24,000 bases of DNA from positions 374,034 through 398,033 of the forward strand of contig NZ_FONV01000011.1 of assembly GCF_900113015.1 (NCBI RefSeq). Direction: 5' to 3'. The translations under genes and the position numbers were made by a program. Within the stretch, counting starts at the first letter, position 1. Each line of letters starts with the position of its first letter. Positions 21,129 through 24,000 of the stretch are shown one piece after another. The notes beneath the pieces are model-generated. The model ran no database searches. It was not told the DNA's origin and saw nothing but the letters and a program-made list of their open reading frames with translations. The DNA is from Actinoplanes philippinensis. Its GTDB lineage: Bacteria > Actinomycetota > Actinomycetes > Mycobacteriales > Micromonosporaceae.

Positions 21129-21539
21129 ATGCCTATAGACAACGAGCCTGTGTACCGGAGCTCGGTAGACAACTACGATCTCACCGACATCGATGGGATC
21201 GAGGCCGACATCGCCGCGATGGAGGAGTTCGCCGCCGGGCTGAAGGCCGACCTCGAACAGAACTACATGCCCCACGCCGACCTCGTCGCCGAGAAGATGC
21301 TCGCCGAGCCACTCAGAGCGGGCGAGTTCTACGAGTTCGACCAGTTCTTGTTCACCCACACGCAGGTCCAGGACGCGACCTTCCTCAACGTGGACAACTA
21401 CGTCATCGGGACCTATCAGTTCGCCACCTCTGCCGAACAGATCAGTGCCAAGTATCGCGGCTCCGACGCATTCTCCCGCGCCAAGCTCTCGGACGTCGAT
21501 GCCGCCTTCCGGACGACTGGAGGCCCGAGTGGCTCTTGA
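21129..21539 (+). CDS. Hypothetical acidic helical protein (136 aa); possible ESX/T7SS-associated small substrate or chaperone
   Basis: Third-codon positions are predominantly G/C in this frame, and a G-rich stretch lies 7 nt upstream of the ATG. No signal peptide, TM helix or Trp. Contains the helical segment IDGIEADIAAMEEFAAGLKADLEQ and a YxxxD motif (YRGSD, nt 21453-21467) near the C-terminus. Family not recognised. Confidence 0.75.
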   Translation: MPIDNEPVYRSSVDNYDLTDIDGIEADIAAMEEFAAGLKADLEQNYMPHADLVAEKMLAEPLRAGEFYEFDQFLFTHTQVQDATFLNVDNYVIGTYQFATSAEQISAKYRGSDAFSRAKLSDVDAAFRTTGGPSGS

Positions 21540-21582
21540 CTCGGGGGGTGGCGCCGGAGACCGCCCGGAAAGATTCACCTAC

Positions 21583-22839
21583 ATGCAGGTCGACGCGATG
21601 TGGGCCATGCTGAGCTTCCATGACAACGCTCCGCATTACCAGGCGCTTGAAGGCTGGAAGCGGTCCTACGAACTTGTTCTGATGCACCGGACGCAGGTCG
21701 AAAAGTACAAGGAAAAGCTGATCACAGCGTGGCCTCCGGAGCGAAACAAGGCGGCGCGCTCGTATGTCGAGCGCCTCGACCACCTCATCGACAGCCTCAC
21801 CGAGACTTATGAGGCGTCGATCACCAACTACACCGCGTACTCGAGCGCCCTGGCCGCCGTCGATGACATCAAGCGGAAGATGGACCTCATCCAGCAGGAA
21901 CATTCCGCAAACACGGCAGCACTCGCCGAGTACGACGAGGATTTGAAGACTCGGCCACGGGCCTTCAGCAAGGCCGGCGCTCCGCCTCCCCCGCCGTCGC
22001 CCGTCGCCGCAGGCCGGCAGGAGGAACTGCGCCTGCAGGCCGTGAGCCTCATGACCGGCTTGACCGCCGAACTAGCCACGGCCCAGACCTCCCTGGTTGC
22101 CCCTCGGCCATACGAACCTTTGCGCATTGTCAACGACAGTAGCGAATCGGTAGGAAACGGGGGAATAAGCCCGATCCTGCCAGGCACAGCTTCGTTCCCC
22201 GCGCGCGTCACGACATCGTCGCGGGCCTCGCGACCGAGGACTCCCATTACGGCACCTCAGAGAGATCTGACTCAGTCCCGACCGGCGCAACCCTCACCCA
22301 GTAAGACACCATCTGGAGGGCCCATCCTCGGCGGAACGAAGCAGCCACAGGCTCCTTCACCAAATCTTCCGTCATCGACACCAACTACATTCACTCCAAC
22401 TCCTAACTCCACCGATCCATTAAACTTCGCACCATCACAAAACCCTTCTCAATCGCCGATTTTCCCCCGCAGTCCGGCCACTAACAACACTGGGCTGGGG
22501 GCAGTTCCACCCGTCACCGGATCACGAGGAACCGCCTCGCCCCTCCATGGGGGCGTTATCGGTGGCACACCACCCATCGGGAGTTCGCCCTCCGGCCGCA
22601 GGGGCAACATGGGAGGCCTAACGCGAGGCGGGCAAAGGATTAATCCAATCGGCGGAATGATCGGACAAGAGGGCGCAGTCACACCCAGGCGAGGTGGAAG
22701 CTCTCGCAAAGAAGACGAAGCACGCTTCCTGAACTGGGATCCCGATAACCCGTGGGAAACCAACAGCGGCGTCGATCCAGTTCTGTCTCCACCTCCGGAG
22801 CAAAAGATCAACCCTGGGCCGACTATCGGTGGACGCTAA
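21583..22839 (+). CDS. Hypothetical protein (418 aa): ~130-aa helical N-domain followed by long Pro/Ser/Thr/Gly-rich disordered region and a W-containing C-terminal motif
   Basis: Part of ORF 21445..22839. ATG 21583 is the first start after the upstream stop, whereas ATG 21445 would overlap the upstream gene by 95 nt. The N-domain is MQVDAMWAMLSF...KLITAWPPERNKAARSYVERLDHLIDSL...; the middle is PPPPPSP and P/S/T-rich; the C-terminus is ARFLNWDPDNPWETNSGVDPVL. It contains a TTA codon at 22420-22422. Family not recognised. Confidence 0.75.
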   Translation: MQVDAMWAMLSFHDNAPHYQALEGWKRSYELVLMHRTQVEKYKEKLITAWPPERNKAARSYVERLDHLIDSLTETYEASITNYTAYSSALAAVDDIKRKMDLIQQEHSANTAALAEYDEDLKTRPRAFSKAGAPPPPPSPVAAGRQEELRLQAVSLMTGLTAELATAQTSLVAPRPYEPLRIVNDSSESVGNGGISPILPGTASFPARVTTSSRASRPRTPITAPQRDLTQSRPAQPSPSKTPSGGPILGGTKQPQAPSPNLPSSTPTTFTPTPNSTDPLNFAPSQNPSQSPIFPRSPATNNTGLGAVPPVTGSRGTASPLHGGVIGGTPPIGSSPSGRRGNMGGLTRGGQRINPIGGMIGQEGAVTPRRGGSSRKEDEARFLNWDPDNPWETNSGVDPVLSPPPEQKINPGPTIGGR

Positions 22840-23980
22840 GGTGAGAATTTTCATCACGGCAACCCTTGTAGCAAATTTCGTATCTATGACTCTATTCCCA
22901 GGGCTTCCAGCTAGAGCTGATCAGATACGAGAACTGCAATGGCATGTTAATTACCTGCACCTAGAAGAGGCTCATCGGATCACTAAGGGGCGCGGAGTCA
23001 TAGTCGCCGTCCCAGACACCGGCGTATCTCCCCATCTCGATTTGAAAAATAATCTCACAAAGGGGGTCGACACAAGAGCAGGCGGAGACGGGATCGGACA
23101 AAGTGACCATAATGGCCATGGCACGCAGATGGCGGGCCTAATATCTGCGCATGGGCATGGAAACAACGATGGCGTTATAGGAGTAGCCCCGGAAGCACAG
23201 ATTCTTCCTATTATGTCACTGGACTCAGAGGGCCGCGGAGCGGGCGTCGAAAAGGGAATAAAATGGGCCGCACAGGCGGGCGCCGACGTTATTAACGTGT
23301 CCAGCGTCGGTGGAGCTTCTCGCCCCCTTAGTGATGCCATCGCCGCAGCAGCCCGAGCCGACTCAGTTGTGGTGGCCGGCACAGGCAATACTTCCACGAG
23401 TCCGAAATTGGGATACCCTGCCGCAATTCCAGGGGTCCTAGCAGTCGGGGCGATTGACCGAAGTGGCAAGCATGCAGATTTTTCTATCACCGGACCGAAG
23501 GTTGAGATTTGCGCCCCCGGTGTCGATATAGTATCAATCGACTTGAACGGCAAGTACTCGAAAAGCAAGGGAACGTCGAGCGCCACGGCAATCGTTTCAG
23601 GTGCGGCAGCGCTTGTGCGTGCGAAGTTTCCCGATCTATCAGCGGCTGAGGTTATACACCGTCTGACTGCAACAGCTGATGATAACGGCGCTCCAGGACG
23701 AGATGACGAGTGCGGCTACGGGGTACTCAACGTTGTGAAGGCATTGACCGCTGACGTCCCTCCGCTCAGTTCTACTGGTGGAACTGCATCGGCGGCGCCA
23801 CGAACTTCCGACTCGGCTCCCGCAGGGATTTCAACGCCTTCGATAACCCCTTCGGGCACCGCGTCACCTCCTGAACCTGCTGGCTCTCAACTACCGCTTC
23901 TTGCCGGCATCGGGATCGCCACCGCCGCGGTAGGAGTACTACTAGCGATTCTGGTTCGGCGGCGACGGGCCGCCTCCTAA
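22829..23980 (+). CDS. mycP: S8 family serine peptidase, mycosin type (type VII secretion-associated MycP-like)
   Basis: 383-aa ORF; start is GTG 22829 or GTG 22841. Signal peptide RIFITATLVANFVSMTLFPGLPARA, then the QWHVNYLHLEEAH motif. Subtilase triad: VAVPDTG (Asp), HNGHGTQMAG (His), GTSSATAIVSGAAAL (Ser). A P/S/T linker is followed by a C-terminal TM helix (LPLLAGIGIATAAVGVLLAIL) and RRRR, the defining mycosin architecture. Confidence 0.88.
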   Translation: MDAKVRIFITATLVANFVSMTLFPGLPARADQIRELQWHVNYLHLEEAHRITKGRGVIVAVPDTGVSPHLDLKNNLTKGVDTRAGGDGIGQSDHNGHGTQMAGLISAHGHGNNDGVIGVAPEAQILPIMSLDSEGRGAGVEKGIKWAAQAGADVINVSSVGGASRPLSDAIAAAARADSVVVAGTGNTSTSPKLGYPAAIPGVLAVGAIDRSGKHADFSITGPKVEICAPGVDIVSIDLNGKYSKSKGTSSATAIVSGAAALVRAKFPDLSAAEVIHRLTATADDNGAPGRDDECGYGVLNVVKALTADVPPLSSTGGTASAAPRTSDSAPAGISTPSITPSGTASPPEPAGSQLPLLAGIGIATAAVGVLLAILVRRRRAAS

Positions 23981-24000
23981 ATGCTGCGCCCTCCAATCGA

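Follow-up and report, generated by a model that had tools for sequence, protein, structure and literature searches.

EspB, a substrate of the mycobacterial ESX-1 type VII secretion system (T7SS), combines a helical N-terminal domain of the PE/PPE type, bearing WxG-like and YxxxD motifs, with a long, disordered and proline-rich C-terminal region, and it is this C-terminal region that is trimmed by the membrane-anchored mycosin MycP1. The T7SS export motif YxxxD/E is also borne by the PE and EsxB proteins, in which it is placed behind helix 2. In the PE25-PPE41, PE8-PPE15 and PE5-PPE4 pairs, which are substrates of ESX-5 and ESX-3, the gene for a small partner comes first and is followed by the gene for a protein with the PPE fold. 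The processing of substrates by MycP has been treated in the literature (PMC11217815), and a study of ESX evolution first meets pe/ppe genes among mycolic-acid producers, in their ESX-4EVOL clusters, and not in the ancestral ESX-4 (PMC4791881). Here we describe a locus which recalls these systems, found in a 24,000-nucleotide (nt) stretch of the Actinoplanes philippinensis genome (contig NZ_FONV01000011.1 of assembly GCF_900113015.1, positions 374,034 to 398,033 of the forward strand; the whole of this stretch is referred to below as the window). It comprises three genes, g1, g2 and mycP, which specify, respectively, a helical hairpin protein, a protein with a PPE-like N-terminal domain and a long tail, and a mycosin. 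Situated between the housekeeping genes accE and maf, they probably constitute a self-contained satellite cassette of substrate and protease that serves an ESX-4-like T7SS encoded elsewhere.

The three genes of the cassette are placed as follows in the window:

21129 to 21539, forward strand: g1, 136 amino acids, an acidic helical hairpin without a signal peptide
21529 to 22839, forward strand: g2, 436 amino acids, a PPE-fold N-terminal domain followed by a disordered tail
22829 to 23980, forward strand: mycP, a mycosin of 383 amino acids, with an alternative GTG start at 22841

A preliminary description of this DNA had noticed three co-directional, closely packed genes over 21129-23980, and this layout holds. 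However, it had begun g2 at the ATG at 21583, leaving a gap of 43 nt behind g1, and this gap is to be replaced by an 11-nt overlap resulting from a GTG start at 21529, which is preceded, across a 6-nt spacer, by a GGAGG at 21518-21522. The 18 N-terminal residues gained by g2 in this manner align with all its homologues, and the NCBI product is likewise 436 amino acids long; the g2 product is 100% identical to the A. philippinensis protein Aph02nite_54360. The g1/g2 and g2/mycP junctions are therefore both 11-nt overlaps and imply that the three genes are translationally coupled. Public annotations place the start of the mycosin 19 codons downstream, and an exact lookup of the 383-residue product thus came back empty. 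Further, the earlier label of a "mycosin-led" module is a misnomer, as mycP is the last of the three genes.

Comparison of the mycP product with TIGR03921, the mycosin equivalog model for the T7SS-associated serine proteases (curated cutoff 278.75 bits; model length 353), gives 281.0 bits over model positions 1-350, while the second-best NCBIfam family reaches only 76 bits. The Pfam Peptidase_S8 domain is recovered at 168 bits over residues 54-298, and no propeptide domain was found alongside it. Of the PADLOC models of known anti-phage defence systems, mycP matches only the generic "subtilase" one. The earlier identification of the third gene as a mycosin is upheld, narrowly above the threshold. 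Inspection of 12 cassette copies shows that all of them keep the catalytic triad, formed in the window copy by D63 (PDTG), H97 (HGTQ) and S250 (GTSSAT), the oxyanion residue N186, an ALTADVPPL motif, the P/S/T linker, the transmembrane (TM) helix and the RRRR stop-transfer signal. The signal peptide and TM helix were read directly from the sequence, and the layout obtained in this way is MDAKVRIFITATLVANFVSMTLFPGLPARA, about 30 residues up to the catalytic aspartate, then the linker, LPLLAGIGIATAAVGVLLAILV and RRRR. A signal peptide, the lack of a cleavable I9-type propeptide, a proline-rich linker and a single C-terminal TM anchor, by which membership among the mycosins may be judged, are accordingly all present. 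By these features the mycP product has an intact catalytic site and a membrane anchor, with its catalytic domain on the extracytoplasmic side, and it appears to represent a compact, divergent lineage of mycosins with borderline membership in the family.

The g2 family numbers 116 homologues, and every one of them with a named organism comes from the Micromonosporaceae; a profile of its N-terminal domain recovered 718 clusters at 50% identity from among 1.84 billion representatives. In an AlphaFold2 (AF2) model built from the family alignment, the predicted local distance difference test score (pLDDT) exceeds 90 over residues 12-190, while the rest of the chain shows no order. The ordered part consists of helices at 34-67, 74-141 and 163-187, the first two being joined by a W68-P-P turn. 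Ranks 1-5, 7 and 8 of a Foldseek search of the PDB with this domain are taken by PPE41, PPE15 and PPE4, with probabilities of 0.98-1.00, a TM-score on the target of up to 0.69 and a best E-value of 2.6e-3. By this match the g2 domain has the PPE-type fold, a helical hairpin with a turn motif and an extended helical tip. In the multiple alignment of 41 g2 sequences (A1), W68, P69 and P70 vary in few sequences or none and the turn reads A-W-P-P(-E); with W68-P69-P70(-E) in the place of the W-x-G turn, the tryptophan is kept and the glycine replaced, and an N-terminal Pro-Pro-Glu is lacking.

At the level of sequence profiles, g2 has no match in Pfam, NCBIfam or PADLOC, and its alignment profile retrieves only noise from the PDB sequences. 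PF00823 (PPE) gives no match to the window g2 at E<=1 and is absent among the 25 of 32 families listed for the 41 members. WXG100_2 weakly matches 6 of the 41 homologues (best E 4.2e-4) and WXG100 a single one of 54 distant family members (E 3.8e-3), the window g2 matching neither, and several homologues are named "PPE family protein" in UniRef. The disordered tail of about 200 residues is variable and rich in P/S/T/G, with conserved GPILGG, GGVIGG and NPxGGxIG elements, and it closes with a conserved WDPDNPW...GVDPV...DPGPxIG motif at the C-terminus. This C-terminal motif of about 35 residues, which is strongly conserved (22737-22839; WDPDNPWxxxxGxxPV...DPGPxIG), has no match in Pfam or the PDB and could signal secretion, anchor the protein to the wall or dock the mycosin. 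On the strength of the modelled fold, g2 is a candidate secreted substrate.

For g1, 61 homologues were recovered. Its AF2 model is a hairpin of two helices (21-57 and 68-109), after which come the YxxxD motif and a short conserved helix. Alignment A2 shows that Y109-x-x-x-D113 is invariant right behind helix 2, i.e., at the position of the motif in the PE and EsxB proteins. This is the architecture of a helix-turn-helix protein of about 100 residues with YxxxD/E behind helix 2, encoded upstream of its partner. As in the case of g2, no match was found in Pfam, NCBIfam or PADLOC, and the 41 g1 homologues of the Pfam comparison have no Pfam family in common. Neither the PE (PF00934) nor the WXG100 profile matches g1, its own profile gives noise against the PDB sequences, and a profile-profile comparison with the g2 N-terminal domain is not significant; in UniRef, one g1 homologue is named "PE domain-containing". 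Sec signals and TM segments are missing from both g1 and g2. Based on the model and the motif, g1 is a candidate PE/EsxB-like partner with a T7SS export motif. The earlier view that the two proteins belong to no recognizable family therefore stands for Pfam and NCBIfam but gives way at the level of the fold, where g2 is PPE-like, while the suggestion that they are cargo rather than machinery gains from both fold and motif, namely the PPE-like N-terminal domain of g2 and the hairpin of g1 with its invariant YxxxD.

These features allow a mechanism to be proposed, in which g1 and g2 would pair to form a PE/PPE-like helical bundle, with the YxxxD of g1 and the tryptophan turn of g2 supplying a composite T7SS export signal. 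The pair could then be exported by an EccB/C/D/E machine whose genes lie in another part of the genome, by analogy with Micromonospora lupini, where a cluster of eccB/C/D/E, esxAB and mycP is found in addition to an "esxB-esxA-mycP" trio that stands apart from it by about 170 gene numbers (PMC4182475). The cassette mycosin, in turn, might dock on or cap this machine and/or trim the disordered tail of g2 at the outer face of the membrane, much as MycP1 does with EspB. The likeness to EspB and MycP1 extends to the helical N-terminal domain, the motifs, the disordered tail and the membrane-anchored mycosin. However, EspB fuses the PE-like and PPE-like halves and is encoded in ESX-1, whereas in the cassette the halves are separate genes, the protease is co-encoded and the whole lies away from the Ecc genes, in a monoderm host without a mycomembrane. 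The cassette resembles the PE-PPE pairs in gene order, in the best structural match of the g2 N-terminal domain and in carrying YxxxD on the small partner and a tryptophan in the turn of the large one; it differs from them in its W-P-P turn and in lacking Pfam PE/PPE matches, the Pro-Glu and Pro-Pro-Glu N-termini and a nearby EspG gene.

A PPE-fold protein, a YxxxD hairpin and a dedicated mycosin here make up a portable unit, distant from any Ecc gene, in monoderm, sporangium-forming actinomycetes. If the proposed mechanism is true, the cassette would furnish a natural case of one protease with one substrate that is useful for the study of mycosin specificity, T7SS cargo modules would be swappable at a fixed chromosomal site, and the origin of the PE/PPE architecture would move outside the Mycolata.

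Mycosins are normally encoded inside ESX loci (PMC11217815), and the window stops 20 nt past mycP. The block could therefore in principle form one end of an unusual but otherwise complete ESX locus, with EccB/C/D and WXG100 genes just past the window, which was one of the two alternatives of the preliminary description, the other being a stand-alone cassette of mycosin and substrate. Two further A. philippinensis sequences bear on this: L002, a contig that is 100% identical to the window over 18089-24000 and continues past its end, and L001 (GCA_016862335.1), which is 99.8% identical over 11108-24000. The extension past 24000, where EccC, EccB, EccD and WXG100 genes had been suggested to be sought, shows both sequences running on into maf, accA, dedA, lpd, GGACT, GNAT and metG. 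The 21 kb upstream of the cassette hold housekeeping genes, comprising glpX, genes for a rhomboid, for a trypsin-like protease and for PhoH, as well as otsB, uppS, pckG and a sigma/anti-sigma gene and, nearer to the cassette, GtrA genes, birA, pccB, an M50 peptidase, a Ser/Thr kinase of 1038 amino acids and accE. The same flanks recur at ten other loci in at least six genera. As had been noted before, neither an Ecc gene nor a canonical WXG100 gene is visible in the window; with the flanks of L001 and L002 included, no Ecc gene occurs from -21 kb to +7.5 kb of the cassette, which therefore refutes the view of the block as the edge of an ESX locus and leaves it extremely improbable. EccC (the FtsK/SpoIIIE ATPase), EccB and EccD occur neither in the window nor in any flank that was retrieved, other genera included, and the usual setting of a mycosin, an ESX locus beside eccB, eccC and eccD, is seen neither here nor in those genera. 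Of the two alternatives, it is the stand-alone cassette that remains. The grounds on which the preliminary description would have been given up do not hold taken together: the protease passes the mycosin model and its partners fall in no non-secretion family, although no Ecc gene lies nearby.

The conservation of the three-gene block in related genomes, which had been put forward as a check, is evident. The order accE-g1-g2-mycP-maf is found in a second A. philippinensis strain (L003), A. sandaracinus, A. subglobosus, A. couchii and A. derwentensis, as well as in two metagenome-assembled genomes and in Micromonospora, Spirilliplanes and Couchioplanes. This recurrent location between accE and maf across taxa therefore indicates that the site is ancestral to the family. 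No copies of the cassette were found on plasmids or in viral contigs. In A. derwentensis (LT629758.1; L005/L007) and A. couchii (L011) two complete cassettes stand in tandem between accE and maf, and the former has, in addition, a third, frameshifted copy of the mycosin between its two cassettes. These arrangements show g1, g2 and mycP to be inherited, duplicated and lost as a single unit.

The closest arrangement in the literature is the second T7SS cluster of M. lupini Lupac 08 (MiLup08_40380-40382, labelled esxB, esxA and mycP), a three-gene block from the same family, in which an S8 mycP comes last and which is set apart from the eccB/C/D/E core; its first two genes are small, "uncharacterized" and Esx-like (PMC4182475). 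This cluster is very probably the orthologous cassette; it is only listed in the genome paper, with no analysis of fold, motif, synteny, duplication or polymorphism. That paper was also the only one returned by searches on mycosins or T7SSs in Actinoplanes and the Micromonosporaceae, and the cassette, listed once in it, is otherwise unanalysed as far as the literature searches show. The presumed machine, the ESX-4 of the non-mycolate Actinobacteria, consists of EccB, EccC, EccD, MycP and an EsxAB pair, and ESX-4-type clusters have been reported from one species of each of nine non-mycolate orders, including the Micromonosporales, among which Salinispora tropica has two (PMC4791881). The cassette differs from the described ESX-4 in being without Ecc components and in adding a dedicated mycosin and a PPE-like substrate (PMC4791881).

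The labels chosen by the M. lupini authors for the equivalent genes (PMC4182475), along with the minimal make-up of ESX-4 systems (PMC4791881, PMC11217815), would also accommodate the view that the cassette mycosin is the displaced housekeeping MycP, with g1 and g2 forming an ordinary EsxB/EsxA pair as opposed to extra cargo. However, the core cluster of M. lupini has its own esxA and esxB and two mycP genes (PMC4182475), and g2, with 436 residues, a PPE-like domain of five helices and a long tail, is no WXG100 protein of 100 residues. Further, the cassettes are duplicated, lost and swapped within a species, unlike an essential core component. This view is accordingly held to be very unlikely.

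Several points weigh against the reading of the locus as a satellite cassette for a T7SS. The mycosin orthologues (n=10) score 266-307 bits on TIGR03921, five of them passing the cutoff and five failing; scores straddling 278.75 therefore result in mixed NCBI names, either "mycosin", as for the mycP product (P0178), or "S8 family serine peptidase". In pairwise comparison with the PDB sequences, subtilisin DY/Carlsberg (138 bits) stands ahead of MycP1 (105 bits). The upstream products both miss the PE, PPE and WXG100 Pfam models at the gathering threshold, and the g2 turn is W-P-P instead of W-x-G. Foldseek returns nothing significant for g1, as is expected of a bare hairpin; the most convincing match, leading the g1 hits in both probability (0.41) and TM-score on the target (0.63), is PE25 (4w4k_C). 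Helical bundles are easily mis-assigned by fold. The ESX core was not located in this genome, a mycosin scan of genome contigs giving nine loci that include neither A. philippinensis nor a paralogous mycosin of an ESX core. Additionally, the pairing of g1 and g2, their export and the cleavage are predictions, and the second M. lupini cluster is equated with this cassette by gene order and naming.

In part, these observations would suit a different interpretation, namely a generic membrane-tethered subtilase accompanied by two unrelated cytoplasmic coiled-coil proteins, with no role in type VII secretion. The mycP product itself exceeds the TIGR03921 cutoff by only 2 bits, g1 and g2 have no Pfam family and no Ecc genes are close by. 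However, all the orthologues align end-to-end with the mycosin model and no other family comes close, and the protease has the architecture of a mycosin, with a C-terminal anchor and no propeptide. Moreover, the fold of g2 specifically matches PPE, the YxxxD of g1 is invariant at the canonical place, and the strict linkage of the three genes and their duplication as a unit point to one function. A generic subtilase with unrelated neighbours is, on this evidence, unlikely, and the satellite cassette remains the preferred interpretation.

A further set of features defines the site in which the cassette resides:

20128 to 20331, forward strand: accE, epsilon subunit of acyl-CoA carboxylase, which flanks the cassette site on the left and is conserved there
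20321 to 20344, forward strand: direct repeat, copy 1, made up of the final codons of accE with its stop and the 13 nt that follow
20476 to 24000 (to about 24053, past the window), no strand: hypervariable segment, with flanks 95-98% identical between two A. philippinensis strains
20535 to 20890, forward strand: decayed mycosin pseudogene with frameshifts, the catalytic Asp and His motifs being lost
21078 to 21101, forward strand: direct repeat, copy 2, left over from the accE 3' end and lying upstream of g1 by about 30 nt
23981 to 24000, forward strand: start of the open reading frame (ORF) MLRPPI..., most likely non-coding spacer between mycP and maf

The most intriguing aspect of the locus is the polymorphism of the cassette within the species. 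A blastn comparison of L002 with L003 gives 94.6%, 97.9% and 98.0% identity in the flanks, while the interior either aligns at about 66% identity or does not align. In their proteins, the two strains share 51% identity in g1, 43% in g2 and 59% in mycP, as compared with 98% in maf and 99% in accA; accE, whose counterpart in L001 carries PF13822 (ACC_epsilon), shares 98.5% identity with that of the second strain. In the g1 tree the Actinoplanes cassettes fall into two classes, one matching the first copy in the tandem arrays and the other the second copy. These first-copy and second-copy groups come out again in the g2 tree, with the second A. philippinensis strain and A. sandaracinus placed outside them. 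The window cassette belongs to class a and, on g1, that of the other strain to class b; the presence of different classes in the two strains therefore accounts for a divergent interior within near-identical flanks.

Such alternative cassette types at one site may reflect a selection, either diversifying or balancing, that acts on an exposed product, protease and substrate evolving together. More speculatively, and with little likelihood of being right, the accE-maf site could be a polymorphic "identity" locus of interchangeable cassettes, each consisting of a surface-exposed PPE-like substrate with its own co-evolving mycosin and all using one shared ESX-4-like machine. Within-species diversity would here be kept by balancing selection, e.g., for strain-specific cell-cell recognition, mating identity or the evasion of phages or competitors directed at the exposed protein. 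Were this true, the PE/PPE heterodimer architecture would be older than the mycomembrane and derive from monoderm actinomycetes. The replacement of cassettes within a species also marks out something on which diversifying selection may act, in a group that has been mined mostly for natural products.

The segment between accE and g1 bears traces of previous events. The pseudogene is detected in tblastn searches with cassette mycosins (best E 2.9e-7, with P0203, residues 59-168), and the pieces matching the hidden Markov model are collinear but dispersed over three frames, covering model positions 60-84, 93-155 and 179-194. A 288-residue ORF called across it on L002 (window 20177-21043) has no Pfam match and is spurious. 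The pseudogene is what remains of an earlier cassette. It is bracketed by the 24-nt direct repeat, the two copies of which are 83% identical, with a similarity that may extend over about 60 nt; the repeat pattern occurs twice in L001 and in L002 and once in L003. The repeat looks like the scar of a duplication or insertion of a cassette that carried the end of accE along. In L003, an ORF of 182 residues upstream of the cassette (2314-2862) is a chimera of g2 N-terminal and mycosin C-terminal fragments, and thus represents a further cassette remnant.

The G+C (GC) content falls from about 70% in the window to 58-62% across the cassette block, and GC at third codon positions (GC3) is 0.66 in the window g2 and 0.51 in mycP. 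Along with the sharp segment boundaries, the interior identity of about 66% between conspecific strains and the accE 3' repeat around the pseudogene segment, this contrast with the flanks would be compatible with a recently acquired foreign island whose low GC derives from a lower-GC donor. However, the cassettes at the same site in Actinoplanes and Micromonospora show the same depression (GC3 of 0.64-0.71 for g2 and 0.51-0.68 for mycP, against 0.8-0.93 in the flanks), the one exception being the second copy of A. derwentensis with 0.83. The close homologues, further, are all from the Micromonosporaceae, and copies were found on neither plasmids nor viruses. A foreign island is hence quite unlikely, and recent horizontal acquisition was dropped as the main cause of the low GC. 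What is mobile is the allele or paralogue, probably through recombination or differential loss within the family, and the GC3 depression of the resident cassettes might stem from weak selection on codons, from the history of recombination or from regulation.

The TTA codon, which is the rarest one in high-GC actinomycetes, is present in g2 and/or mycP in 10 of the 12 cassettes, as opposed to none of 3831 flank codons, and in the window it is codon 298 of g2 (about 22420-22422). These codons could impose a dependence on a bldA-like tRNA. However, specific TTA control of the bldA type was rejected, for while TTA is frequent its positions are not conserved, and its occurrence is probably a by-product of the low GC3.

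With respect to the DNA immediately downstream of mycP, the TAAATG at 23978-23983 had been taken to lead into a further gene beginning MLRPPI, which is not borne out. The frame has only 50 codons in L002 (5893-6045), overlaps the start of maf (6033/6057) and is called by no annotator, so that it most likely represents the spacer between mycP and maf rather than a fourth gene. A scan for promoters and terminators was uninformative, with no promoters, and terminators below the shuffle mean. Upstream, the divergently transcribed Ser/Thr kinase gene (16913-20029, reverse strand) accompanies the cassette in synteny at most loci that were looked at. This gene contains 21-nt tandem repeats at 17389-17456, 17973-18143 and 18252-18367, which encode heptads rich in Ala/Gln/Thr, and the single 21-nt indel between L001 and the window probably corresponds to one such repeat unit.

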